Assembly (NCBI GenBank): GCA_046293175.1
Contig: JBKBPM010000002.1
Location: 158,428-222,427 of the forward strand
Origin: Minisyncoccia bacterium
Lineage (GTDB): Bacteria > Patescibacteriota > Minisyncoccia > Phycocordibacterales > UBA918
Length of the DNA: 64,000 nt
Direction of reading: 5' to 3'
Part shown: positions 9,042 through 39,250 of the stretch, one piece after another
Layout: every line of letters starts with the position of its first letter
How positions within the stretch are numbered: position 1 is the first letter of the stretch
The notes under the pieces: model-generated
What the model saw: the letters and a program-made list of their open reading frames with translations, nothing else
What the model was told of the DNA's origin: nothing
The model's database searches: none
Made by a program: the position numbers and the translations under genes

Positions 9042-9086
9042 GGATCTTCCCCTACGGGACGGTACAGGTTTCGTAACATTATTTGT

Positions 9087-9200
9087 GGTCACGAATCACT
9101 AAGTATATTTCTTCACTACGTTCGAAATCTACTAAGTGTTCGCGACCCCGCCTCGCGGTTTTCTGCTTTGGTCAAGCAGAAAACATCGCTGCGGCTCGCG
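9087..9200 (+). repeat. tRNA-downstream structured module, copy A (18-nt mini-repeat 9087-9104 + ~90-nt main repeat 9112-9200), antisense to tRNA-Lys
   Basis: ~80% identical to reverse complement of 36206-36290; the hairpin shows compensatory changes (GGTTTTCTGCTT/AAGCAGAAAACA here vs GGTTTTCTTTT/AAAAGAAAACA in copy B); partial copies at 32058-32118 and 33237-33302. Confidence 0.6.
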
Positions 9201-9236
9201 CCACCGTCGCAAGCAATACTAATTGCTTGCTAAACC

Positions 9237-9270
9237 AAAAACATCCCCATTAGCTAATGGGGATGTTTTT
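9237..9270. terminator. Intrinsic terminator hairpin AAAAACATCCCCATTAGCTAATGGGGATGTTTTT downstream of tRNA-Lys
   Basis: Perfect 12-bp stem flanked by A5/T5. Confidence 0.6.
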
Positions 9271-9279
9271 GGTTTTCGG

Positions 9280-9356
9280 TGGTGCGCCCAGTAGGGATCG
9301 AACCTACGACCTTCTCCTTAAAAGGGAGCTGCTCTACCGGCTGAGCTATAGGCGCA
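9280..9356 (-). tRNA. tRNA-Lys (anticodon TTT), CCA encoded
   Basis: Manual fold: acceptor GCGCCTA/TGGGCGC, T-arm GGTTCGATCC, anticodon loop CTTTTAA. Confidence 0.9.
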
Positions 9357-21769: not shown

Positions 21770-22400
21770 GCTAGTCTCTTTAACTATTACTCGGATATAT
21801 TCATCGGTGCAACACGATACTACAATTTACTTGATTGGAGTGAAATAAAGATTTCGTTATCGTAGCTGATTCCTTGATAATAGATTCGTACTATGAGACT
21901 TTGATTTTCAAAGTAATCTTTTGGACGAATAGATATTTTACGGTGATATATCTTGTTCAGTTTTAAGGGTATAACATCAATTTGGTATCGAAGTGGTTTA
22001 CCAGGAAGTGGTTCAAGGCTAAGTATTTCAATTTTTTCCGTCCCATTTATTACTTGTATCTCCATTTCTTTCGAAGGATATAACCATTCTAAAAGTACAC
22101 TTGGGATTCTAAAACGAAAGAGTCCATATCACACTTTTGGTTTAAGTGAAAAACTTATATCAGTTACAGTTAGATTGAAAGCCGCAGCTTCTGGCCAGAA
22201 TATGTTTTTTGATTTAAGAAATTATGAACTATGGATGTCTAAATCCTCTGGAATAAAGAAAACCTTAAACGTAAGAGGTATAAATTTCTTTAACAATGGT
22301 TTCATTGTAAATTTAATTACTCCTAGAATCAATGCCAAGCCAATAGTTATTTTAATCATAATGTTACATTTTACCACCTGAGAGAGATTCGGTCGCTACA
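21770..22400. other. AT-rich islet (~33% GC vs ~50% flanks) abutting the 3' end of tRNA-Ser; possible remnant of foreign DNA
   Basis: Compositional break visible by eye; only weak ORFs; ends at an inverted copy of the tRNA-Ser 3' end. Confidence 0.5.
21820..22065 (-). CDS. Hypothetical small protein inside AT-rich islet
   Basis: 81 aa, MEIQVINGTEKIEILSLEPLPGKPLRYQIDVIPLK; plausible beta-rich protein, no homology assignable. Confidence 0.3.
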   Translation of the reverse strand: MEIQVINGTEKIEILSLEPLPGKPLRYQIDVIPLKLNKIYHRKISIRPKDYFENQSLIVRIYYQGISYDNEIFISLQSSKL

Positions 22401-22496
22401 CGACCAGTACACCTTTTGGGTACTTTATTTCGCACGGCTCATAAAGTTCTGCAAAAGGTTTTCGAATCCCTACGCACAAGCTCCCAGCTTGTGCTC

Positions 22497-22556
22497 TCTC
22501 TCCGCGAACAAAAAAGGCGCCAAACGGCGCTCTATTTTGTACTCGCGGAGAGAGAG
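22497..22556. repeat. 14-bp perfect inverted repeat (CTCTCTCTCCGCGA / TCGCGGAGAGAGAG) made of the tRNA-Ser 3' acceptor end and an inverted copy, flanking a GC hairpin
   Basis: Read directly; inverted copy continues into a degenerate T-arm-like TTCGAATCCCT at 22474-22484. Confidence 0.6.
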
Positions 22557-22632
22557 GGATTCGAACCCTCGAGGAGCTTTCACCCCTAACAGTTTTCAAG
22601 ACTGCCGCCTTCAACCACTCAGCCATCTCTCC
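22546..22632 (-). tRNA. tRNA-Ser (anticodon TGA), long variable arm
   Basis: Manual fold: acceptor GGAGAGA/TCTCTCC, anticodon loop CTTGAAA, variable arm ~18 nt, T-arm GAGGGTTCGAATCCCTC; ORFs 22396..22749(-) and 22489..22815(+) are translation artefacts of this gene. Confidence 0.9.
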
Positions 22633-22756
22633 AATATATGCAATTTTTGTAGGTGGTTGAAGGTTCGTCCACCTGGCACTGGTTCGCTTTCGCTCACATC
22701 GTGCCTCCGCGATTTGATCGCGGAACGGATCAAAAGTGAAACTTTTCACTTTTCAT

Positions 22757-22774
22757 CCACTCAGCCATCTCTCC
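22757..22774 (-). repeat. Direct partial copy of tRNA-Ser 5' end (GGAGAGATGGCTGAGTGG) 125 nt upstream of the gene
   Basis: 18/18 identity to 22615-22632; followed by hairpin-rich sequence, no matching 3' half. Confidence 0.55.
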
Positions 22775-22899
22775 AAATATATTCAGTTGTGGCATGCACT
22801 ATAGCATTTTTTTGATTTTATACAACCATAGCTCGTAGGGGTGCGAGGGTAGGGGAAAGACCACTTTGACGTCCATCCCCATGCTAAAATAAAATTACT

Positions 22900-23427: not shown

Positions 23428-23499
23428 GCTCTCATAGTTTAATGGATAGAATGCCGGTTTGCGGTACCTGCGATCCAGGTTCGATTCCTGGTGAGAGCA
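23428..23499 (+). tRNA. tRNA-Arg (anticodon GCG by manual fold; one C-T mismatch in anticodon stem)
   Basis: Perfect 7-bp acceptor GCTCTCA/TGAGAGC, T-arm CCAGGTTCGATTCCTGG, D-arm TAGTTTAATGGATAGAAT; TACTAT -10-like box 10 nt upstream; ORF 23406..23618 is an artefact. Confidence 0.7.
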
Positions 23500-23566
23500 C
23501 AAACGGCCGACCCATATGCGCAAGCATATGGGTCGTTGCCGTTTGTAGCTCTCACCAGGAATCGAA
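23481..23566. repeat. ~38-bp imperfect inverted repeat: tRNA-Arg 3' end plus trailer pairs with an inverted copy (loop CGCAAG)
   Basis: Arm 23481-23518 vs arm 23525-23566; followed by second GC hairpin 23569-23601. Confidence 0.6.
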
Positions 23567-23762
23567 AGACTGTTCCGGGGTCCCCTTAGGGCCGGAACAG
23601 TCCGGGTCGGGCGAATGAGATATTTTATGAGGCACGAAATAAAATATCCATGAGCGTGACCGATTCCTTCTAAAGAATTGCGTTAGGAATCGAAGCCCGA
23701 TTGAGCTGGATTATGAGCTTGCGAAATAATCCAGCCAATTGGGTGACTTCCCCTGTAAGGAC

Positions 23763-23782
23763 CGATTCCTGGTGAGAGCACA
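23763..23782 (+). repeat. Direct repeat of tRNA-Arg 3' end (CGATTCCTGGTGAGAGCACAA) ~270 nt downstream of the gene
   Basis: 20/20 identity with 23483-23502; att-like duplication signature but no integrase nearby. Confidence 0.55.
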
Positions 23783-23899
23783 ACTACGAAAAAGCGCACC
23801 CTTATGAGTGCATTTTTCGTTCGTGCTCCCATCAAAAACTACCTGAAGCATAATGTAAAACAGCATCCCTTTCGGGAGCTGTTTTACATGAGCTAATTA

Positions 23900-31575: not shown

Positions 31576-32030
31576 TAGACCAAGCGCGTATTCAACAAAT
31601 AGTAAAACGTCTTCTGAAGTCGCCTTCGGTCGAGGAACGACAAGCCATTAATCCACCACGGGAATGGGCCCTTGGTATTATGCTTTCACTAATTGGTGTT
31701 GGGGTAGGAGGGGCGGTGAGTTACCTTTCATATCTAAATACCGTATCGGTTGAGGTGGTGGCTCCGGTAGTTGTTGAACCTGCAGCGTATAGCGGGGTAG
31801 TAGTCGAAGGTGCCGCGATGCAATTCCGAGAGCGGGCAGCGCGGTTTGCCGAGCTGCGCGGGGACACTAGTGTTCCGGTTCCAGCGCCAATTGAAACTGT
31901 GGCAACTACAACAAAAGCCGAAGTACCGCCACCGACAGAAGTTGAAGTTGTGCCGGAGATACCAGAGACACCAGTCGATGAGGCTCCGGCTTCGGAACCG
32001 GATGGTTTGACACCGGAGTTGGGTGTGTAG
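31572..32030 (+). CDS. Hypothetical membrane protein with Pro/Glu/Val-rich C-terminus (possible PilP/PilQ-associated)
   Basis: Start taken at ATGA overlap with pilO stop; one TM (ALGIMLSLIGVGVGGAV). Confidence 0.45.
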   Translation: MIDQARIQQIVKRLLKSPSVEERQAINPPREWALGIMLSLIGVGVGGAVSYLSYLNTVSVEVVAPVVVEPAAYSGVVVEGAAMQFRERAARFAELRGDTSVPVPAPIETVATTTKAEVPPPTEVEVVPEIPETPVDEAPASEPDGLTPELGV

Positions 32031-32057
32031 GGTACAGTTACAAATCGTGAATCATTT

Positions 32058-32118
32058 GGTCACCAGTCACTAATTATAATTGTTCACTACGTTCGAAATC
32101 TACTAAGTGTTCACGACC
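32058..32118 (+). repeat. tRNA-downstream module, partial copy C (mini-repeat + first ~36 nt of main repeat), antisense to tRNA-Arg(TCT)
   Basis: TTCACTACGTTCGAAATCTACTAAGTGTTC identical to copy A for 30 nt. Confidence 0.5.
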
Positions 32119-32249
32119 TTGGCTTGGAATCGTCCTGACGGTCACCAAGCTAGATTGTTTCGTATACACTCACAATCTAGCAGGTGCCGCGGGACACGGC
32201 TCGCCGGCCCTAAACTTGCAAAAGCGTCCCACGCTTTCTCACCCGGCTT

Positions 32250-32340
32250 TGCCGTTCGATTCCAAGCCGTGCCTACAAATGGCAACAGCCAGAACGCATG
32301 CGCGTGCTGGCTGGCCATTTGTGCCCCGGCTTGGAATCGA
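32250..32340. repeat. ~36-bp inverted repeat: tRNA-Arg(TCT) T-arm/acceptor/trailer pairs with an inverted copy; inner palindrome CGCATGCG
   Basis: Arm GTTCGATTCCAAGCCG.GGCACAAATGGC.AGCCAG on both strands; same architecture as at tRNA-Arg(GCG). Confidence 0.6.
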
Positions 32341-32392
32341 ACCAAGAATAACGGCTTAGAAGTCCGCAGTTATATCCATTTAACTACCGGGA
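32321..32392 (-). tRNA. tRNA-Arg (anticodon TCT)
   Basis: Manual fold: acceptor GTCCCGG/CCGGGGC (one G-U), D-arm GTTAAATGGATATAAC, anticodon loop CTTCTAA, T-arm CTTGGTTCGATTCCAAG; 72 nt; ORFs 32107..32406(+) and 32142..32345(-) are spurious. Confidence 0.7.
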
Positions 32393-32487
32393 CGCACCCC
32401 ATCTAAAGATGAGGTGAAGCTAGCATAGCAAAAAAATGCTGTGTCGGAAACTTCGTAAATCGTGGCAGGTTTTGTATACTAAGGCGT

Positions 32488-33225
32488 ATGCAAACACGAC
32501 CGACTATTCTCTTGGTACAATTCAGACAAACTCCTGCTGCAGATTTGCTTGAACGACAGAGTATTGAACGTGAAGTTTCTCCTTTTGTAACTGTAAAAAC
32601 AATTTGTGGTGTCACTGAAGATGTTCGGGCAGTATTAAACGAAGTCGATGGAGTGATTCTTGGTGGTTCGGGCGACTACGACTTTGATGGGGCGCGGTCA
32701 GTTGATGATCCGGTGCGGGCTCGTACTGAGAGCCTCTTCCGTTCTCTTGGTCCGACGCTTGATTATTTATTTACTATCGATAAACCCCTCCTTGGTATCT
32801 GTTTTGGACACCAGCTCATGGGTGCCTTTCGAGGGGCTAGTGTCTATCATGATAAAGAGCAGAGTAAGTTGAAGACTCACACGGTGACCATGCATGAGGA
32901 AGGGCGAAATCATCGCCTGTTCGCGAACATGCCGACTACCTTTGATGCGCAGTATGGGCACAAGGATGTACTTGCACATATTCCGACGGGCGCAACGTTG
33001 CTCGCCCACGGCGGTGAGTCGTGTCGGGTCTCAGCGCTCGCGTATAGTGATAATATTATCTCGACACAATTCCATCCCGAATTGACCTTAACCGATATGT
33101 ATGACCGTGTGGCCCATATTCCACACTATTTGCCTGAGGGAACGACCGTGGATGAAATGTTTTTTGATACTCCGCACGCGCGGACGATTTTGCATAATTT
33201 TGCGAAGGTGGTGGCGGTGGGGTAG
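32488..33225 (+). CDS. Class I glutamine amidotransferase-like protein
   Basis: 245 aa; nucleophile elbow GICFGHQLM and His/Glu region typical of GATase1. Confidence 0.7.
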   Translation: MQTRPTILLVQFRQTPAADLLERQSIEREVSPFVTVKTICGVTEDVRAVLNEVDGVILGGSGDYDFDGARSVDDPVRARTESLFRSLGPTLDYLFTIDKPLLGICFGHQLMGAFRGASVYHDKEQSKLKTHTVTMHEEGRNHRLFANMPTTFDAQYGHKDVLAHIPTGATLLAHGGESCRVSALAYSDNIISTQFHPELTLTDMYDRVAHIPHYLPEGTTVDEMFFDTPHARTILHNFAKVVAVG

Positions 33226-33236
33226 GGGCGGGACTT

Positions 33237-33302
33237 GGTCATAAGTCACTAAGCTTTTTATTGAACTCAGTTCATAAAAATCTAAGTACTTGCGACCCCT
33301 CC
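33237..33302 (+). repeat. tRNA-downstream module, partial copy D, antisense to tRNA-Val
   Basis: GGTCATAAGTCACTAAGC + TTCATAAAAATCTAAGTACTTGCGACCCCTCC; ~75% identity to copy A. Confidence 0.5.
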
Positions 33303-33418
33303 TTGACTCTCTCTTTCTCCGCTTCGCTCCGAAATTCGCATGAGTCCCCGGCTTTCAAGTCCCTTATCGCCAGACCAACAGCAACGGCCGGAACACTAAC
33401 GTGTTCCGGCCGGCTGAT

Positions 33419-33494
33419 TGGTGGGCGATGAGGGACTTGAACCCCCGACCTTCTCAGTGTAAATGAGCTGCTCTACCAACTGAGCTAATCGCCC
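33419..33494 (-). tRNA. tRNA-Val (anticodon TAC), CCA encoded
   Basis: Manual fold: acceptor GGGCGAT/ATCGCCC, anticodon loop TTTACAC, T-arm GGGGGTTCAAGTCCCTC. Confidence 0.9.
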
Positions 33495-33573
33495 GCACTT
33501 AGTTGCCTAAGGTAGCCACTATACTACCTGCTTTTGAAAATATTTCAATAGCTGCTCATTATTAGGTATACTG

Positions 33574-33855
33574 GTGACTATGATAGAGCTGCACGCAACC
33601 GTAACCGGAAAAGTCCAAGGCGTCCGCTACCGGGACTATGTTCAACAAGTAGCTACCAATATGGGATTGGTTGGTTCGGTCGAGAATCGGAGAGATGGTT
33701 CAGTTTTTGTGATTGCCCAAGGTATGCCTGACGTACTTAAGGAATTTGTTGAGTACCTCCATGAGGGATCTCTCCTTTCTAAGGTAGATGGGGTAGCGGT
33801 TGAGTGGCGGAGCCAGGCGAAGGTTTACCAAGAGTTCTCCATTCTTTTTACTTAG
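33574..33855 (+). CDS. acyP: Acylphosphatase
   Basis: 93 aa; V.G.VQGV.YR motif (VTGKVQGVRYRDY) and GxVxN (GSVENRRDG). Confidence 0.85.
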   Translation: MTMIELHATVTGKVQGVRYRDYVQQVATNMGLVGSVENRRDGSVFVIAQGMPDVLKEFVEYLHEGSLLSKVDGVAVEWRSQAKVYQEFSILFT

Positions 33856-33859
33856 CTGT

Positions 33860-34546
33860 ATGACAGATAGCCCAATACGTCCCACCTGCGTTGGTTTTAT
33901 CATGGATGGTAACCGTCGCTGGGCACTCGAGCAAAATGCGGAAACAATCTTTGGTCACGAAGCCGGTGAAAAAAAATTTTATGAAGTGGCACAGTGGATA
34001 AAAGAAGCGCATATTCCACACGCGGTCTTTTATGCGTTTTCCAGTGAGAACTGGAAGCGTAGTTTGCTTGAGGTGACCTATCTTCAAGAACTCTTTTTGC
34101 GCTTCACGAAGCGAATGTTGGCCGAAGTGCACCAATGGCAGGTGAGAGTCAACGTTTTTGGAGATCTCTCCCTATTTAGTGATGAGCTGCGACAAGCAGT
34201 TGGTGAACTCATGCAGGAAAGTGCCCGCTATGAGACTACTACTATTTGGGTAGCGCTCTCTTATGGTGGGCGAGCAGAGATAGTGGCGGCAGTCAACAAA
34301 GCAATCGTTGTAGGGCGACCAGTTGATGATGTGACCTTTGCTCGTCACCTGGCTACCGCTGGAATGCCAGACCCTGACCTTATTATTCGGACTGGGGGAG
34401 ACGTTCGACTGTCTAATTTTTTACCGTGGCAGTCGGTCTACAGCGAGCTTATGTTTACTCCTACCTATTGGCCGGCATTTACTAAAGACGAATTTATGAG
34501 TATGCTGACGCAGTATGGAGATAGAAAACGTCGTTTCGGACGCTAA
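33860..34546 (+). CDS. uppS: Undecaprenyl (isoprenyl) diphosphate synthase, cis-prenyltransferase
   Basis: Start at MTDSPIRP...; motifs FIMDGNRRWA, ENW.R, RTGG..RLS.FLPWQ. Confidence 0.85.
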   Translation: MTDSPIRPTCVGFIMDGNRRWALEQNAETIFGHEAGEKKFYEVAQWIKEAHIPHAVFYAFSSENWKRSLLEVTYLQELFLRFTKRMLAEVHQWQVRVNVFGDLSLFSDELRQAVGELMQESARYETTTIWVALSYGGRAEIVAAVNKAIVVGRPVDDVTFARHLATAGMPDPDLIIRTGGDVRLSNFLPWQSVYSELMFTPTYWPAFTKDEFMSMLTQYGDRKRRFGR

Positions 34547-35291
34547 AGATATAACTGAGCCAGTGGTCCTCTTTGAAAATGAGGCTGTGTTGGTCGTGAA
34601 TAAGCCCTACGGTATGCTCGTTCACGAGGATTGGCAAAAAGCCGATACGACACTTGTCGATTGGTTCTTGATCCGCTGTCCGGAGGCGAAGGGAGTGGGG
34701 GAAGCGACCGCGACCCCTGATGGGAAGCCACTTGAACGCTCTGGGGTAGTCCACCGACTCGACCGTGATACTTCCGGCGTCATGATCCTGGCAAAGACGG
34801 CGGAGGCTCATGCGCACCTCAAGGCCCAGTTCCATGATCGTCACGCCAAAAAAGAATATCGTGCCTTTGTCTACGGTCGCCTCAATGAACGGTGGGGAAC
34901 GATTAATCGCCCGATTGGTCGCAATACCCAGAACTTCCGCCTACGCTCCGCCCAGCGGGGTGCCAAAGGTACGTTGCGCAGTGCCGTGACAGATTGGGAA
35001 CGAATTGCGGCCGGCGAGTACGCAGGAGAGCCCTTTTCCTATGTAAAGCTTATCCCGAAGACTGGACGTACTCACCAGCTGCGCGTCCACCTCAAAGCCA
35101 TTGACCGACCAATTGTGGGGGATGTCCTCTACAGCGGCAAAAAGCGAGAACTTTCTAACAATCTTGAGCTCGACCGTTTGGCCCTCCATGCTCATGTCCT
35201 TGAGCTTACGTTGCCAAATGGAAGCCTTGAACGCTTTATTGCTCCGGTACCCCACAGCTTTGAACTAGCAGCGGAACGTATTGCAGAATAA
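34515..35291 (+). CDS. RluA-family pseudouridine synthase
   Basis: 258 aa; catalytic HRLDRDTSGVMILAKT motif. Confidence 0.8.
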   Translation: MEIENVVSDAKDITEPVVLFENEAVLVVNKPYGMLVHEDWQKADTTLVDWFLIRCPEAKGVGEATATPDGKPLERSGVVHRLDRDTSGVMILAKTAEAHAHLKAQFHDRHAKKEYRAFVYGRLNERWGTINRPIGRNTQNFRLRSAQRGAKGTLRSAVTDWERIAAGEYAGEPFSYVKLIPKTGRTHQLRVHLKAIDRPIVGDVLYSGKKRELSNNLELDRLALHAHVLELTLPNGSLERFIAPVPHSFELAAERIAE

Positions 35292-35357
35292 GGGAGCTTG
35301 TGGTAGATTAGGGCACGTTTTACACGGACCAGAGGCATTTATTGTTATTATTATTGT

Positions 35358-35930
35358 ATGAACACAGCATTACAAGGCGTTGCTATCTCGCCAGTACAGA
35401 TGGCAGACCGCAAAGCGCTCGGCATCAAGCCAGGTGACACAGTTAAGGTGCACCAGAAAATCGTCGATAAGGGAAAGACTCGTCTTCAGGTATTTGAAGG
35501 TGTGGTCCTTGCTCGTAAGCATGGCAATGAGCCAGGCGCTACATTCACCGTCCGTAAGGTTTCAAGTGGGGTTGGCGTAGAGAAGATTTTCCCGCTCTAC
35601 ACACCACTGATTGAAAAAATTGAAATTGTGAAGCGCGCCAAGGTCCGTCGTGCCAAGCTCTATTACATCCGCGAGAAGGTGGCGCGTGAAATCAAGCGTC
35701 AAATGCGCCGCATGTCTCTCGTTTCGATGTCTACTGAAAGTGAGACTGAAGCGAACGCTCGTATTGAAGCAGAAGCAAACGCGGTCGCCGAAGCTGCCGC
35801 CGCTGCAGAAGCAGCAGCACTCGCAGCTGCAGCACCAGCGATAGAAGAAACTCCAGCTGAAGCCACACCAGCGGTGGCTGAAGAAACTTCGGCTGTTGAA
35901 ACACCCGCTGAAGAAGAGAAGAAGGACTAA
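35358..35930 (+). CDS. rplS: 50S ribosomal protein L19 with Ala/Glu-rich C-terminal extension
   Basis: N-terminal 115 aa canonical L19; ~70-aa low-complexity AEAxAAA tail. Confidence 0.9.
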
Positions 35931-36040
35931 AGAATTTTCCTCACAAAAACCGAACGCCTCGTGCGCTCGGTTTTTGTTATGGTTGCAAATTACGTACTTT
36001 CCGTGCATAATGTCGCCACTTGAGAAATCAAGGGACACCT

Positions 36041-36124
36041 GCCCAGGTGGCGAAATTGGTAGACGCACTACCTTGAGGTGGTAGCGCCTTCACAGGCATG
36101 CTGGTTCAAATCCAGTCTTGGGCA
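36041..36124 (+). tRNA. tRNA-Leu (anticodon GAG), long variable arm, CCA not encoded
   Basis: Manual fold: acceptor GCCCAGG/CTTGGGC, anticodon stem CTACC/GGTAG loop TTGAGGT, T-arm CTGGTTCAAATCCAG. Confidence 0.9.
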
Positions 36125-36127
36125 CAA

Positions 36128-36155
36128 TATAAAAGACGCACCGAGGTGCGTCTTT
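36128..36155 (+). terminator. Intrinsic terminator AAAAGACGCACCGAGGTGCGTCTTTT after tRNA-Leu
   Basis: Perfect hairpin with A4/T4 flanks. Confidence 0.6.
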
Positions 36156-36205
36156 TATATTGTGCCCAAGAAGAAAAGCATTAATATGCTTTTCGTCTGG
36201 ATTTG

Positions 36206-36290
36206 AAAGCCGCAGCGTTGTTTTCTTTTAACAAAAAAGAAAACCGCGAGGCGGGGTCGAGAGTACTTAGATTTTTATGAACGAAGTGAA
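36206..36290 (-). repeat. tRNA-downstream module, copy B main repeat (reverse complement of copy A), antisense to tRNA-Leu; mini-repeat at 36523-36540
   Basis: ~80% identity to 9112-9200 with compensatory hairpin substitutions; mini-repeat ACTTAGTGATTCGTGACC identical to copy A. Confidence 0.6.
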
Positions 36291-36592
36291 ATAAAAAGCT
36301 TTGTAACTTGTGACCTAATCCAGTCTTGGTTATTCATAATACCGAAACGGGTGAGCCCTGGGTGAGAAATGGGAAAGGGACCCATTTCGCAAGACCTTTT
36401 GAGAAATCTTTTATTTCCAAAAGGGGTACTGCTCCTGTAAGGAGGAAGTTCTTACTAGAATTGGAGCGAAGCAAACAATTATAGTTAGCAACTTGACCCC
36501 AGTGAAAATACGCACCTCAAAAACTTAGTGATTCGTGACCAAGACAAACAACTTCTGACCAAATCCACTCTCTACACCACCGTCTATAGCTG

Positions 36593-37999
36593 ATGATATA
36601 CTACTCCCGTATGACCTACTCGCTTGCCCCACAGTTTCTAAAAGCCTTCAAAGATGCTGATATTCGTGGGACCTATCCCGAAGAGATTAACGAGGGAGTT
36701 GCCTACGCTGTAGCGCGTGCCTTTGTGGAGGAGTTTGCCTATACCAAGGTGGTGGTGGGACGAGATATGCGACTGTCTTCACCAGAGCTACACACCGCTT
36801 TTGTGGCTGGTGTGCGAGACGCCGGTGCGGACGTTATTGATGTGGGGATGGTAGCGACCCCACAGCTCTACTTTGCCTCTGGGTCCATGGATATCCCCGG
36901 GGTGATGATTACCGCCTCGCACAGTCCAGCTGAATATAATGGGATGAAGCTCGTGCATGCACAGGCGATACCGCTCACTAAGCGCAATGGCCTCGCGCAA
37001 CTCCTCAAACGAGTGAAAAAAGGGCAGCGGGTGACACCGAATAAAAAAGGAAAGTACACCAAAAAGAATATTGACGCTGGCTATCAGAAGCAAGTCCTCG
37101 CCGGCATCAAACCAAAGCGCTACGCCGGTATTCGTCTCGCGACCGATATTGGTAACGGGATGGCGCATGATATTGTGCCACTCTTAGCCGCAAAGCTCCC
37201 CATTAAGTTTGATACAATTTTTGCCCGCCGTGATGGTCATTTCCCGAATCGGGACTCTGATCCAAACCTCCGCGAGAATCAAATTGCGCTTGATAATAAA
37301 ATTGATCACGGTCACTATGACTTCGGTATCTCCTTTGATGGTGATGCTGACCGTATTGCTTTCTTAGACGAACATGGTAACTACGTAAACAGTGCCGCTA
37401 TTGGTGCCTTGATTGCGAAGCGTATTTTGGCTCGCGAACCAAAAGCGAAGATCGCCTCAACTAATCTCAATAGCCGTATCTACGACGAAACGATTAAAAA
37501 GCATGGAGGGAAAGTAGTAATGGCACGTACGGGACACACCTTTGTGAAAGAAGCGATGCGCAAACATCAAGCTGTCTTTGGTTGCGAATACTCAGGCCAC
37601 TTCTTCTTTCGTGATTTCTTTTATACCGATTCGGTGGTATTAACCCTCCGTGAGGTGCTTGATGCCTATGTCGAAGGTAAAGCCGCTGGGCAGACCTTCA
37701 GCCAGCTTATGGCACCGTACCTCATCTACGAACAGACCGAAGATATTGTCATACCAGTTAAAGATAAGGATGTCGCTATGGCGAAGGTTCATGACTATCT
37801 CGTCTCTCTAAAACCTAAAACACTCAAGAAATTTGATGGCTACTTTGTTGATTTCGGTGACGTGTGGGGTGCGGTCAAAATGAGTGTGACCGAATACGGC
37901 GTGAAGTTGATGTTTGAATCAACGAGCAAAACGAAAGCTCAAAAGCTTCAGCGGAAGATTCAGCAGTTTGTGAAATCGATTACCAAAGATACTCAATAG
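36593..37999 (+). CDS. Phosphoglucomutase/phosphomannomutase family protein
   Basis: 468 aa; active-site ITASHSPAEYNGMK, metal loop FDGDADR. Confidence 0.8.
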   Translation: MIYYSRMTYSLAPQFLKAFKDADIRGTYPEEINEGVAYAVARAFVEEFAYTKVVVGRDMRLSSPELHTAFVAGVRDAGADVIDVGMVATPQLYFASGSMDIPGVMITASHSPAEYNGMKLVHAQAIPLTKRNGLAQLLKRVKKGQRVTPNKKGKYTKKNIDAGYQKQVLAGIKPKRYAGIRLATDIGNGMAHDIVPLLAAKLPIKFDTIFARRDGHFPNRDSDPNLRENQIALDNKIDHGHYDFGISFDGDADRIAFLDEHGNYVNSAAIGALIAKRILAREPKAKIASTNLNSRIYDETIKKHGGKVVMARTGHTFVKEAMRKHQAVFGCEYSGHFFFRDFFYTDSVVLTLREVLDAYVEGKAAGQTFSQLMAPYLIYEQTEDIVIPVKDKDVAMAKVHDYLVSLKPKTLKKFDGYFVDFGDVWGAVKMSVTEYGVKLMFESTSKTKAQKLQRKIQQFVKSITKDTQ

Positions 38000-38001
38000 C
38001 A

Positions 38002-39126
38002 TTAATCAACCATGACCTCAGAGGCAATGGGGAAGGAGTTGTAGCCACGAGCACGCATACTGGCACAGTAGGCGCCGGTGTCATAGATACGGACCTCGTC
38101 ACCAATGTGAGCAGTTTTAAGTTTCCTTGGGGCAACTGATTCTGAGTCACCTGGTACGGTCGTGAAAATATCACCTGACTCGCAATTGTGTCCGACTACC
38201 ACATATTCCTCGTAGGTTTCTTCATCATTTATCACGGCAATCTTGTGTTGCGCGCCGTACATAGTAGTGCGAAGAAAGTCATTCATACCAGTGTTGAGTT
38301 TGAGGAAGGTGTAGCCGTTTTTACCAGTATCGACGATATCATCAATGGTGGCCACAAGCGTACCAGCATGCGCAATAAAGTAGGTGCCGGGTTCAATTTC
38401 AAGTGCTAACTGGCGTCCGGTGGAGGCGGCAAAAGCTTCGAGTTGTCGTTTGAATTCGGCAGCGATGATAGACATATCGGCTTCTTTTTCTTCGGCAAAG
38501 CGATGGACTTTATACCCACCACCAATATCAAGTGTGGTGACGTCAGGAAAGAGAGTAACTATCTCGAGCGCTCGAGCCATTACTTCACTCCAAACTTTTG
38601 GGTCAGCCCCGGAACCGATGTGGAGATGGAGACGATCAATGGTCCCTCCTGCCGCATCAGTACGTGCGAGGATATCAGGTATGTACTCATACCAGATACC
38701 AAAACTGGCGGACACCCCACCGGTACTCGTGCGAGCATTATGACCCATGCCCAAATCAGGATTAATGCGGACTGCAACGGTATCCGGACGACCTGGCGTA
38801 TCCAGAAAAAGCTCGAGTTGATGAAGTGATGTCGCTACAAACTGGACTTTGGCTGCGAGTAACTCGGGAAGATTGTGTGGCGTTTGCTGGGAAGAGAGTG
38901 AGATATGTGCGCCAGGGATACCAAGTGCGAGGAGCTCGCTTGCTTCATAGCTTGAGCTCGCATCAAAGTGCACACCATTTTTATGCATCAGAGCGATGAT
39001 GTCGGGGAAGGGGTTAGCTTTAACCGCGTACCGAACCGTGAGGCCGTAGGGTAGATCAAGGTTGGTGAGGAGATTAATTCGATCGCTAATGACCTGACGA
39101 CTATACTCGTAACGTGGGGTAGACAT
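38002..39126 (-). CDS. PLP-dependent group IV decarboxylase (diaminopimelate/ornithine decarboxylase-like)
   Basis: 374 aa; YAVKAN PLP-lysine motif, GGG loop, TIM-barrel + beta-sandwich pattern. Confidence 0.7.
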   Translation of the reverse strand: MSTPRYEYSRQVISDRINLLTNLDLPYGLTVRYAVKANPFPDIIALMHKNGVHFDASSSYEASELLALGIPGAHISLSSQQTPHNLPELLAAKVQFVATSLHQLELFLDTPGRPDTVAVRINPDLGMGHNARTSTGGVSASFGIWYEYIPDILARTDAAGGTIDRLHLHIGSGADPKVWSEVMARALEIVTLFPDVTTLDIGGGYKVHRFAEEKEADMSIIAAEFKRQLEAFAASTGRQLALEIEPGTYFIAHAGTLVATIDDIVDTGKNGYTFLKLNTGMNDFLRTTMYGAQHKIAVINDEETYEEYVVVGHNCESGDIFTTVPGDSESVAPRKLKTAHIGDEVRIYDTGAYCASMRARGYNSFPIASEVMVD

Positions 39127-39177
39127 TGTTCAAGTATAGAATAGTAGCAGGTTAGACGCCAGATGGCATTTTTATTG

Positions 39178-39250
39178 GGCGGCTACCGGGAATTGAACCC
39201 GAATTGAGAGTTCCACAAACTCCAGTAATAACCATTATACCATAGCCGCC
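39178..39250 (-). tRNA. tRNA-His (anticodon GTG) with genomically encoded G-1
   Basis: Manual fold: G-1 + acceptor GCGGCTA/TAGCCGC, anticodon loop TTGTGGA, T-arm TCGGGTTCAATTCCCGG. Confidence 0.85.

Follow-up and report, generated by a model that had tools for sequence, protein, structure and literature searches.

The segment at positions 9,087 to 9,200 of the 64-kb stretch of DNA analysed here (the window) reads, with a probability of about one half, as the right-hand part of a 197-nt insertion element without open reading frames (ORFs), located at 9087-9283 on the minus strand, the segment comprising its P2-H3 hairpin and its end hairpin H4. The same even odds are given to the wider reading, that the element belongs to an ORF-less family which sits at tRNA 3' ends, recurs in Patescibacteria and moves as a folded single strand. 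This family is without description in Rfam or in the literature searched, and one nucleic-acid strand appears to define both of its ends by the way it folds. Patescibacteria, whose genomes are tiny, are thought to be poor in mobile elements; in the window, six of the seven tRNA genes have a copy from a single family exactly at their 3' end, and the family recurs in many lineages.

The original prediction described a homologous module downstream of tRNA-Lys, tRNA-Leu(GAG), tRNA-Arg(TCT) and tRNA-Val, in a constant orientation relative to the tRNA, and this was borne out. Pairwise blastn within the window aligned the copies with E values of 3e-16 to 7e-19, and a covariance model matched 9087-9147(-), 36255-36315(+), 33237-33297(-) and 32058-32118(-) with E values of 3e-19 to 7e-13. 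The GC-rich box (CCGCGAGGCGG followed by GGTCG) was found, as was the hairpin with compensated differences between copies (GTTTTCTGCTT/AAGCAGAAAAC in copy A versus GTTTTCTTTT/AAAAGAAAAC in copy B), and the segment 36523-36541 matched the 3' arm of copy A at 19 of 19 positions. The repeats were of a different nature than proposed. Their consensus, ACTTAGT-(4-6)-TTCG-(2)-ACC, had no match in the window, and the heptamer ACTTAGT was not enriched (6 occurrences against 6.6 expected), with two exact copies in copy A only. Each copy does contain two similar heptamer-related segments about 31 nt apart; these segments, taken for iteron-like direct repeats, form the two near-palindromic arms (5' and 3') of a single imperfect hairpin of 61 nt, H4. 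The predicted extent covered the right-hand part of an element that continues to 9283, and the predicted list, correct for its four loci, did not include the related elements at tRNA-Arg(GCG) and tRNA-Ser, nor the older remnants that follow tRNA-Leu and tRNA-Arg(TCT).

Selection on secondary structure, also part of the prediction, received strong support from H4 covariation and from the folding of whole elements. H4 is 94.4% paired, with double changes in nine pairs (136 cells), and its covariation score of 0.294 compares with 0.10 in shuffled and at most 0.085 in slid controls. It contains an invariant G·U pair, and its apex is a C-GNA-G triloop. RNAalifold predicted 68 pairs in 17 whole elements, 51 of them with compensatory changes. 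The module folds better on the tRNA-sense strand than on the antisense strand: G·U outnumbers A·C by 78 to 6 on the sense strand, and the covariance model scores 89.8 bits on this strand versus 32.8 bits on the other. Two further candidates, a Tn7/CAST transposon end and an opposite-strand RNA gene resembling tmRNA or tRNA, were dropped because the arms pair with each other and the sense strand is the folded one. A K-turn geometry was a poor fit by eye.

From the tRNA end onwards, the elements consist of P1, H1, H2, the P2-H3 hairpin and H4 (Table 1), with a length of around 190 nt (median 188 nt, range 170-240 nt) and no ORF. The P2-H3 hairpin has an outer and an inner helix of 3 bp each, with an asymmetric G(C/G)A / GA internal loop between them, followed by a variable stem. 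The palindrome H1 of element A could act as a bidirectional intrinsic terminator, judging from its layout; a simple terminator consensus scan, in which its T-run is counted as stem, did not flag it. Every copy has a long perfect palindrome, and the terminator-like layout is visible in nearly all of them. Element A provides A73-CCA and all downstream sequence for tRNA-Lys(TTT), and its right flank, past GTGACC, begins with ACAAATAA, the discriminator A being first.

Table 1. Positions of the insertion elements, their parts and the displaced tRNA fragments in the window
Feature	Position	Strand	Description
Element A, complete, class 2	9087-9283	-	Follows C72 (9284) of tRNA-Lys(TTT) and precedes its original trailer
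P1 5' strand, element A	9277-9286	-	Last 3 acceptor-stem nt (9284-9286) and the element's first nt
H1, element A	9232-9275	-	20-bp perfect palindrome: A-tract, GC core, T-tract
H2, element A	9209-9230	-	9-bp hairpin with 4-nt loop: GCAAGCAAT TAGT ATTGCTTGC
P1 3' strand, element A	9197-9206	-	Its 3' part, 9197-9199, pairs with positions 70-72 of the tRNA acceptor stem
P2-H3 hairpin, element A	9148-9194	-	GC-rich box plus hairpin of the original prediction
H4, element A	9087-9147	-	61 nt: GGTCG...ACTTAG...C-GNA-G apex...CTTAGT...TGACC; right end of the element at the H4 foot
Element B, class 1	36108-36315	+	Behind C56 of tRNA-Leu(GAG); replacement tRNA 3' end 36108-36125
H1, element B	36116-36171	+	
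H2, element B	36173-36194	+	
T-arm complement, element B	36197-36207	+	
P2-H3, element B	36210-36254	+	
H4, element B	36255-36315	+	
Region past element B	36316-36541	+	Displaced original tRNA-Leu 3' fragment 36316-36333 (TAATCCAGTCTTGG...), then older-element remnants
Older remnant, type III hairpin	36395-36424	+	
Older remnant, decayed H4	36444-36500	+	
Older remnant, lone H4 3' arm	36523-36541	+	
Element C1, class 1	32131-32338	-	Behind C56 of tRNA-Arg(TCT); variant type IV end hairpin 32131-32196; tRNA 3' end, H1 and inverted copy form a single palindrome, 32255-32341
Region past element C1	32058-32130	-	Truncated displaced tRNA-Arg 3' fragment 32120-32130 (ATTCCAAGCC) joined to an older H4 (type I, 5'-truncated, 32058-32118)
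Element D, class 1	33237-33438	-	Behind C56 of tRNA-Val(TAC); palindrome 33355-33440, H4 33237-33297; H2 missing, P2-H3 region degenerate
Displaced original tRNA-Val 3' fragment, decayed	33216-33236	-	AAGTCCCGCCCCTACCCCACC; overlaps the stop codon of the convergent ORF 32488-33225
Composite behind tRNA-Arg(GCG)	23483-23785	+	Class 1 element with type II end hairpin 23605-23661; next, a remnant with type III hairpin 23695-23744; last, the intact displaced tRNA 3' fragment 23762-23785 with native trailer and terminator
Class 1 element behind tRNA-Ser(TGA)	22376-22562	-	Palindrome including the tRNA 3' end 22495-22565; H2 22474-22494, type III hairpin 22411-22459, small terminal hairpin 22390-22406, displaced fragment 22376-22389

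The elements always lie on the sense strand of their target and use two insertion points, after tRNA position 56 in the T-loop (class 1) or after position 72 (class 2). Class 1 elements carry a copy of the tRNA 3' end together with the perfect inverted complement of that copy; the replacement end keeps the gene intact, and the displaced original decays beyond H4. They are flanked by direct copies of the tRNA 3' end of 16-30 nt. Class 2 elements insert exactly at C72|N73, the first two nucleotides of the element repeating N73-C74, and their junctions share 2-4 nt of identity. The right flank begins at position 57 or at the discriminator, and with G in 9 of the 11 cases where the tRNA has G73. 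No terminal inverted repeats were found: the longest terminal inverted match averages 4.4 nt in 98 elements, against 4.7 nt after shuffling. A functional tRNA-like RNA built on the distal 3' fragment was ruled out, the fragment being decayed in most copies. Upstream of tRNA-Ser there is a further insertion of roughly 125 nt (22633-22790), a candidate for a mirror-image family at 5' ends.

Both junctions take part in pairing. The triplet of the left flank (positions 70-72 or 54-56; TTC in class 1 and variable in class 2) pairs with an internal triplet immediately 5' of P2, and the last triplet of the element, ACC, pairs with GGT at the foot of H4, so that a P1/P2/H4 three-way junction brings both junctions together. 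Pairing extends outwards to tRNA position 54 in 36 of 82 elements and to position 70 in 16. In the RNAalifold alignment, tRNA positions 70 and 71 are paired in 17/17 sequences, with the variants CG, UA, GC and AU.

Pattern scans recovered the same module at about 190 loci, almost all labelled Patescibacteria (Paceibacteria, Kaiserbacteria and Parcubacteria are among the labels), mostly 100-140 nt downstream of a tRNA or tmRNA and always in sense; the link to tRNA 3' flanks claimed at the outset thus extends to the relatives. The genome scan gave 73 loci, with 45 of 74 hits lying 69-248 nt downstream of a tRNA on the same strand. Among the covariance-model hits, 52/92 were within 250 nt of a tRNA or tmRNA and 14/92 in tandem arrays, and 70 of the 123 metagenome hits were near such genes (within 250 nt), covering 19 tRNA identities and tmRNA. 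A few copies with the same architecture were found at the 3' ends of ftsZ and rpsI, and in ftsZ the module lies within the 3' end of the coding sequence.

A given site can be filled by different elements in close relatives. The relative L072, with flanking proteins up to 99% identical to those of the window, has a class 2 element inserted precisely at the C72/A73 boundary of tRNA-Arg(GCG); the same site is empty in the window, where this tRNA has another element. Identical H4 sequences were found behind at least four different tRNAs in five assemblies. This turnover, the precise junctions and the recurrence of the same H4 behind different tRNAs suggest that the elements are mobile. Other insertions are held in common, such as that behind tRNA-Val in the window and in L012, and orthologous copies in L072 and L027 show compensated changes in the palindrome. 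At the tRNA-His locus, the window and the relatives L037 and L063 gave no clean contrast between filled and empty sites, as the genes downstream are different.

Searches for an enzyme gave negative results. No transposase, integrase or reverse transcriptase was found in the window, Pfam revealed no recombinase, HUH protein or reverse transcriptase among ten of its ORFs that had no assignment, and Y1 (HUH) transposase TnpA, RAYT and intI were not detected in it either. Neither an integrase nor a rep-like ORF was present in the window or the flanks examined, and tblastn with an IS200 TnpA query, which is a weak test, returned nothing significant in 1.1 Mb of flanks. No conserved protein neighbour was found at 70 genome loci, the sole recurrent 'family' consisting of spurious ORFs across H4 in two frames. 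Scanning a viral collection with these patterns revealed no autonomous relative, only chance hits inside coding sequence that lacked the context of an element. With Rfam 15, tRNA and tmRNA alone reached threshold (gathering and E-value), and an E-value scan of 31900-36700 gave no relevant family with E below about 0.05. A literature search that included exact sequence strings found no description of the element family. No sigma-70-like promoter was found inside element A on either strand, nor any promoter conserved between H4 subtypes.

The preferred explanation is that of a non-autonomous mobile element whose moving form would be a folded single strand, with DNA likelier than RNA. Its ends would be recognised by base pairing, by analogy with IS200/IS605 elements and their REP/PATE derivatives, and cutting and joining would be carried out by an enzyme encoded elsewhere. 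Several features speak for single-stranded DNA rather than RNA: the H1, H2 and H3 stems contain few G·U pairs (6/880, the remaining 874 being Watson-Crick), the H1/H2 loops listed are atypical (none is GNRA or UNCG), H4 has its C-GNA-G triloop at the apex, the terminator-like H1 lies upstream of the conserved core, between it and the host gene, and there is no internal promoter. Several observations sit poorly with a single-stranded DNA element. A guide of 3 nt cannot alone account for so strong a preference for tRNA ends, an RNA-level process would more naturally give the strict sense orientation relative to transcription, and the inverted copy of the target end has no explanation in it. Judging by GC skew, four of the six occupied tRNAs are off the lagging-strand template, unlike the usual IS200/IS605 bias. 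The negative searches for an enzyme in the window, for conserved neighbours at 70 loci and for an autonomous relative in the viral collection also count against it, as does, weakly, the tblastn result for 1.1 Mb of flanks.

A bolder proposal, on balance rather unlikely, is that of a new class of mobile element: a gene-less single strand of ~190 nt, DNA or RNA, whose own fold would bring its ends close to each other and which chooses its target by pairing, through the 3-nt guide and, in class 1, a hairpin mimicking the 3' end of the gene, to be cut and joined by a conserved host enzyme or by self-catalysis. If true, this would amount to a 'minimal transposon', programmable and dependent on its host, which mends the gene it has interrupted.

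Several of the features above could be read at the RNA level. The element would then be co-transcribed by read-through from the tRNA, tmRNA or mRNA, with the P1/P2/H4 junction as a functional RNA. This RNA could serve processing or stability, be a small ribozyme of the self-cleaving or splicing type, or belong to a non-autonomous retroelement; R2 elements, which free themselves from the rRNA co-transcript by a ribozyme, are a proposed parallel. The constant sense position downstream of highly expressed genes, the invariant G·U and the excess of G·U over A·C in H4, the tandem G·A motifs in P2 and at the H4 apex, and the left-flank pairing, which resembles exon-binding pairing of introns, all agree with such an RNA. 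We consider it unlikely, since a terminator-like perfect palindrome would separate the host gene from a core that has no internal promoter, G·U pairs are nearly absent from the other three stems, the loops listed include no typical RNA tetraloop, Rfam gave no match to a ribozyme or intron family, and no reverse transcriptase is nearby (window and flanks examined). Quite improbable is an origin as miniature integrative elements or attP-only satellites, inserted by Campbell-type recombination through the tyrosine (or serine) integrase of a larger island, plasmid or phage, with the element's copy of the tRNA 3' end recombining with the chromosomal gene. The T-loop and the 3' end of tRNA and tmRNA genes are reportedly the classic integrase sublocations, class 1 elements have direct tRNA 3'-end repeats with the functional copy derived from the element, and tandem arrays occur at single sites. 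However, the class 2 junctions share only 2-4 nt, short of the identity block of about 7 bp or more expected of integrase sites, which the 16-30 nt of class 1 do reach; the targets lack a common core, no integrase was found in the window or flanks examined, and both the conserved mismatches and the strand asymmetry of the covariation argue for a single-stranded fold rather than double-stranded arm sites; a double-stranded circle of about 190 bp would also be sterically unfavourable.

The remaining alternatives do without insertion. Vertically inherited terminator or insulator modules could be under selection behind tRNA genes, their palindromes growing and staying perfect by template switching during replication and the modules being exchanged between loci by homologous recombination. 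The layout of H1, the perfect palindromes with compensated changes between the L072 and L027 copies, and insertions common to relatives, such as the tRNA-Val one, are consistent with this, but identical H4 sequences behind different tRNAs in different genomes, the differing occupancy between near-identical genomes, the displaced 3' fragments and nested arrays that record serial insertion, and the module inside the ftsZ coding end make it very improbable. Of the three functions offered in the original prediction, two are hardly credible, namely duplex-DNA iterons bound by a regulator or replication protein and small antisense RNAs transcribed towards the tRNA. The pair of similar heptamer-containing segments in each copy had spoken for them; these segments are the complementary arms of one hairpin with nine covarying pairs, their consensus has no match, the heptamer is not enriched, and no rep-like gene was found in the window or flanks examined. 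As for an antisense RNA, that strand folds worse, A·C replacing G·U, and promoters are missing both from element A and as a conserved trait of the H4 subtypes. The third, att or arm sites of an element targeting tRNA trailers, came closest in its targeting of tRNA 3' ends, except that the module, rather than serving a larger element as a site, is in its own right a complete insertion element, ORF-less and precise in its junctions.

If the fold-defined ends and the guide-like triplet of the folded single-strand element are real, they would constitute a very small, possibly reprogrammable insertion system for chosen single-stranded sites. The replacement gene end and the terminator would likewise be a natural case of an element neutralising its own damage. 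For annotation, the elements account for many conserved mini-ORFs labelled 'hypothetical' in metagenome-assembled genomes and for odd flanks of tRNA genes there, and they are markers of strain-level turnover.

Known systems share parts of this architecture. Like classical MITEs (Correia/NEMIS, RPE, ERIC, BOX), the elements are short and structured, have no ORF, occur in multiple copies and often lie between genes, close to gene ends, and the ability of MITEs to act as terminators recalls the terminator-like layout of H1. A classical MITE was nonetheless rejected, as terminal inverted repeats and a short target duplication of fixed length are lacking, the target is a precise position and not a dinucleotide, and the host gene 3' end is replaced. 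R2 retrotransposons and their internally deleted derivatives sit in rRNA genes, and group IIC introns behind terminators. They resemble the present elements in their sense position within or after a conserved RNA gene of high expression, in the pairing of the 5' flank with the element and in having non-autonomous derivatives; in the present elements there is no reverse transcriptase and no recognisable ribozyme or intron domain, and a terminator-like hairpin lies upstream of the core.

The attP of CTX-phi (XerCD) and integron attC are folded single-strand sites of which one strand is active, with conserved extrahelical bases and mismatches. H4 is likewise an imperfect hairpin with conserved extrahelical bases and mismatches on one strand only, and the order of a direct target-like copy, spacer, inverted copy, rest of the element and second direct copy is that of hairpin-folded single-strand integration. 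The elements differ in targeting many gene ends and not dif or attI, and in having neither phage genes nor cassette ORFs. An integron attC was rejected given the absence, on inspection by eye, of GTTRRRY-type R-boxes (RYYYAAC ... GTTRRRY) and of intI in the window, the H4 foot being GGTCG...TGACC, or GGTCA...CGACC on the other strand. With islands and prophages of tyrosine integrases, the elements share T-loop and 3'-end targets, a gene kept intact by the 3' end borne on the element, a displaced fragment as direct repeat, and tandem arrays. Unlike those islands, they are about 190 nt long without integrase or any ORF, share only 2-4 nt in class 2, contain an inverted copy of the target end and give evidence of a single-stranded fold.

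IS200/IS605 elements are without terminal inverted repeats and have strand-specific subterminal imperfect hairpins at both ends; their left cleavage site, in the flank, pairs with an internal guide immediately 5' of the left hairpin, and the guide that pairs with their right cleavage site, which is the element end, lies at the right hairpin's foot. In IS200, a perfect palindrome near the left end doubles as a terminator. In the present elements, by contrast, the guides are triplets that merely extend helices, a self-folding P1/H1/H2 module of about 100 nt lies between the left cleavage site and the guide, and the targets are tRNA, tmRNA, ftsZ and rpsI 3' ends and not a fixed tetra- or pentanucleotide. 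Class 1 holds a replacement target end with its inverted complement, no Y1 transposase was found (window and 1.1 Mb of flanks), and the window shows no lagging-strand bias. The two nevertheless agree in the absence of terminal inverted repeats, in imperfect hairpins at both ends (P2-H3 and H4) that are strand-specific by covariation and asymmetry, and in a terminator-like perfect palindrome near the left end, H1. With the left-flank triplet pairing 5' of P2 and the terminal ACC pairing at the H4 foot, the modelled guide pairing of both ends resembles IS200/IS605 end recognition in its geometry. ORF-less derivatives of IS200/IS605 are known as PATEs, and REP/BIME sequences are mobilised by RAYT tyrosine transposases; like them, the present elements would be non-autonomous and dependent on an enzyme encoded elsewhere.

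The homologous module that the original prediction placed behind tRNA-Lys, tRNA-Leu, tRNA-Arg(TCT) and tRNA-Val, in constant orientation to the tRNA, was recovered at the four loci, and within-window blastn aligned its copies at 72-86% identity across 77-143 nt (E 3e-16 to 7e-19). Both full copies, A (tRNA-Lys) and B (tRNA-Leu), also contain the GC-rich box and a hairpin whose differences from one copy to the other are compensated. The observation was real but inaccurately described, and the interpretation was partly right: the consensus given for the direct repeats had no matches, the ACTTAGT heptamer was at chance level (6 seen vs 6.6 expected), and in folds of either copy the two segments base-pair with each other as arms of a single hairpin, H4, because ACTTAGT almost equals its own reverse complement. 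The finding is considerably larger than was first seen, and deserves follow-up. The window otherwise contains ordinary housekeeping genes, such as RuvC, RuvB and PolA, and ARAGORN and Rfam searches found seven tRNA genes and no further known RNA in it.

Extra copies were gathered with the pattern GGTCGNNANNACTTAGNNNNTTNNGAAC, using one genome per species. The scan yielded 73 loci, nearly all of them labelled Patescibacteria, with three to four evident chance matches (~17 expected by our own arithmetic). Proteins flanking several of the Patescibacteria-labelled loci (Paceibacteria, Kaiserbacteria, Parcubacteria) showed up to 99% identity to those of the window. In 56 distinct 61-nt H4 sequences, 94.4% of the cells were paired and nine pairs showed two-sided changes (136 cells). 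The covariation score of the aligned copies was 0.294 vs 0.10 shuffled and at most 0.085 with slid partners, and the varying pairs were mostly free of constraint from the search pattern. Conserved irregularities include G5·U57 (55/56), A6·G56, U14·U47, G19·A42 and a bulged A52, and the apex, closed by a GNA triloop, has two Watson-Crick pairs and two G·A positions of the sheared type. The G·U to A·C ratio was 78:6 (23:6 once the invariant pair is left out) and the covariance model scored 89.8 bits on the sense strand vs 32.8 bits on the antisense, indicating that the folded strand is the tRNA-sense strand. In one locus (L020, 6288-6405) the apical loop of H4 holds a 57-nt nested hairpin with a ATGAGCTTGCGAAT loop motif, and the model aligns end to end regardless.

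Upstream of H4, one common fold was found in 45 tRNA-linked copies. The tRNA end and the next nucleotides pair with a segment ~100 nt downstream (P1), which encloses H1, a stem of 16-27 unbroken pairs with an A-tract, GC core and T-tract whose sequence differs in every copy, and H2, with 9 bp and a 4-nt loop in 29/45 copies. It is followed by P2 (3 bp, an asymmetric G(C/G)A over GA loop and 3 bp, with varying pairs), detected in 78/134 copies against ~1% expected by chance, then by a variable H3 and H4. RNAalifold on 17 full elements of the second insertion class described below independently recovered P1, H1, H2, outer P2, H3 and H4, with compensatory changes in 51 of 68 pairs. The length from N73 to the end of H4 has a median of 188 nt (interquartile range 182-199), and the elements contain no terminal inverted repeats. 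At least three further end-hairpin types (II, III and IV) substitute for H4 in sister elements and recur in loci of relatives, such as L001, L009, L018, L055 and L071; they share the apical loop form ATGA(A/G)C...(C/T)GAAAT, and type III hairpins have GTACTG and a further, small hairpin after them.

The module tracks tRNA 3' flanks across relatives, since 45/74 genome-scan matches lie 69-248 nt (mostly 100-140 nt) downstream of a same-strand tRNA. The covariance model found 92 sense copies in these loci: 52 within 250 nt of a tRNA or tmRNA, 14 farther away in tandem arrays, 8 cut by the locus end and 18 others. Copies away from tRNAs are mostly tandem arrays or lie at tmRNA and at the 3' ends of ftsZ and rpsI. 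Among the matches listed from the metagenome scan (at least 120 loci), 70/123 were no more than 250 nt away from a tRNA or tmRNA, covering at least 19 tRNA identities and tmRNA. Within the window, all covariance-model matches with E <0.1 sit behind a tRNA. Six of the seven tRNAs have an element; the exception is tRNA-His (39126-39249), a site with a class 1 element in relatives L037, L063 and L011; in L037 the downstream gene differs too. Three tandem H4 copies lie behind one tmRNA in L040. Typical elements were also found in L065, labelled Acidimicrobiales, and in several Saccharibacteria-labelled loci, some of which (e.g. L012, L072) encode proteins closely matching those of the window; these taxon names seem to result from mistakes in binning or labelling.

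Location of the elements and related features (window positions unless a locus is named)
Feature	Location	Detail
Element A	9087-9283(-)	tRNA-Lys
Element B	36108-36315(+)	tRNA-Leu(GAG)
Class 1 elements		tRNA-Val, Leu, Arg(TCT), Arg(GCG), Ser
Class 2 element		tRNA-Lys
Decayed H4 copy	36444-36500	covariance model, E <0.1
Variant end hairpins	32131-32196, 23605-23661, 23695-23744	covariance model, E <0.1
Types II-IV end hairpins	23605-23661, 23695-23744, 22411-22459, 36395-36424, 32131-32196	
H4-crossing ORFs	9083-9253 (+); L004, L007, L009, L037, L044, L055 and others	
tmRNA elements	L017, L023, L040, L070 (and L100)	
ftsZ/rpsI-end elements	L043 3165-3600, L033 6760-7120, L016 5370-5800, L002 6730-7340, L086, L105, L118; L013 3780-4100	

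The right flank, directly after ...GTGACC, defines two classes. In class 2 (47/90 non-redundant tRNA-linked elements) it begins with the discriminator base (A where the tRNA has A73, and G in 9/11 G73 cases), so the element lies directly after position 72 and ahead of the original N73. In class 1 (17 under strict, gap-free matching and ~15 more whose T-loop part has indels of 1-4 nt) it begins at position 57 and goes on to repeat the tRNA 3' end, often in decayed form. Here the functional 3' end adjoins the tRNA body and is followed by H1 and then by its perfect inverted complement, interrupted by H2 at the T-stem/acceptor-stem boundary; some copies also include a few nucleotides of the native trailer. 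The ftsZ elements have the class 1 layout, with a hairpin made from the final codons and stop; past H4 the coding 3' end is present a second time, decayed. A layout with both a copy of the target's 3' end and its perfect inverted complement would result either from template switching at the hairpin or, in the manner of CTX-phi, from a single strand integrating in its folded state.

Elements at ftsZ lie inside the coding 3' end (...DDWGAVPAFLRRSKLK-stop) and those at rpsI at the gene end; both carry replacement last codons and a stop, with the decayed original past H4. Many displaced tRNA 3' fragments are intact but for a 2-nt (sometimes 4-nt) T-loop insertion just past the junction (GA[AC]TTCC, GAA[AT]TCC; L175, L187, L188, L124, L182, L157, L094, L062, L110), which could be a trace left by the chemistry of insertion. 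In the window, the convergent ORF 32488-33225 has its stop and last codons inside the decayed tRNA-Val 3' fragment (33216-33236), and element debris is therefore now part of a coding 3' end.

Turnover is indicated by L072, whose flanking proteins show up to 99% identity to those of the window. In its tRNA-Arg(GCG), a type I element of class 2 separates C72 from A73 with no offset; the window's version of this site (...GAGAGC/ACAACTACGAAAAAGCG) is empty, and the window bears there a class 1 element with another end hairpin. One and the same 61-nt H4 sequence recurs in five assemblies, following four or more different tRNAs, whereas copies inside the window's single genome are up to 28% divergent. 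Nested and tandem arrangements are a record of serial insertion on the tRNA-proximal side. Upstream of tRNA-Ser(TGA), at 22633-22790, a ~125-nt insertion stands between the tRNA and a second copy of the gene's initial ~20 nt (22756-22785). It holds a complement of the D-arm region and a ATGTGAGCGAAAGCGAAC loop motif resembling H3 of the 3' elements, and may be a mirror-image relative for tRNA 5' ends that brings a new promoter-proximal copy.

Several other readings were considered. The family failed defining tests for iterons, its repeats being arms of H4, for antisense sRNAs (the sense strand folds better), for classical MITEs (no terminal inverted repeats), for integrase-bearing islands and for attC sites. 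Searches of the 64-kb window detected no transposase, integrase or reverse transcriptase, the 70 genome loci had no conserved protein neighbour, and scans of a viral collection brought up no viral or plasmid-like carrier; a tblastn search of 1.1 Mb of flanks with an IS200 TnpA query, a weak test, gave nothing significant. ORFs of 56-130 aa cross H4 in two frames (WSRITKYICSLRSKSTKCSRPRL and GHESLSIFVHYVPNLLSVLDP), giving a false appearance of a conserved protein family, and are likely carried as hypothetical proteins in genome annotations. No Rfam family matched, and a full-text literature search including exact sequence strings returned no description of the family.

Whether the folded strand acts as DNA or RNA draws evidence on both sides. 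An RNA-level stage is favoured by the strictly sense orientation behind highly expressed genes, the conserved G·U in H4 and the tandem G·A motifs. The strand asymmetry itself fits DNA and RNA alike, because G·T is the best-tolerated mismatch in DNA. A single-stranded DNA stage is favoured by the near-pure Watson-Crick stems (Watson-Crick to G·U pairs 462:1 in H1, 216:0 in H2 and 196:5 in H3) and by self-complementary H1 centres (8/24 vs 1.5 expected), by which the stems resemble true DNA palindromes. The loop types point the same way, with no GNRA or UNCG among the listed H1 or H2 loops; the C-GNA-G triloop, the form of the H4 apex, is especially stable in DNA. So do the position of the terminator-like H1 ahead of the conserved core and the lack of an internal promoter in element A. 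Judged by GC skew, four of the six tRNAs with elements are probably not on the lagging-strand template, unlike the usual IS200/IS605 bias.

The outermost tRNA position paired by the element was 54 in 36/82 elements (53-56 in 49), with a second cluster at position 70 in 16/82 (69-72 in 25), exactly three nucleotides left of the 56/57 or 72/73 junction. RNAalifold paired positions 70 and 71 in 17/17 elements through CG, UA, GC and AU, and thus the internal triplet, located two purines 5' of P2, covaries with tRNA identity. At the right end, the terminal ACC triplet pairs with GGT at the H4 foot. With the left flank entering through P1 and the right flank leaving from H4, the junctions meet at the P1/P2/H4 three-way junction. 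We propose that the family is a small non-autonomous insertion element, and there is a real chance that it will prove a new class once an enzyme, or self-catalysis, has been identified. Its choice of target and its restoring of the gene are features in common with integrase-driven tRNA islands. By its pairing of flank and end, it behaves most like non-autonomous elements of the IS200/IS605 type, which lack inverted repeats and act as single strands. The same end logic is found in IS608 and ISDra2, where left-flank and right-end cleavage sites are read by guide pairing beside subterminal hairpins, and in IS200 a palindrome near the left end stops transcription. PATE and REP-like derivatives, moved by a transposase encoded elsewhere, would be the match for an element made of a left and a right end alone.
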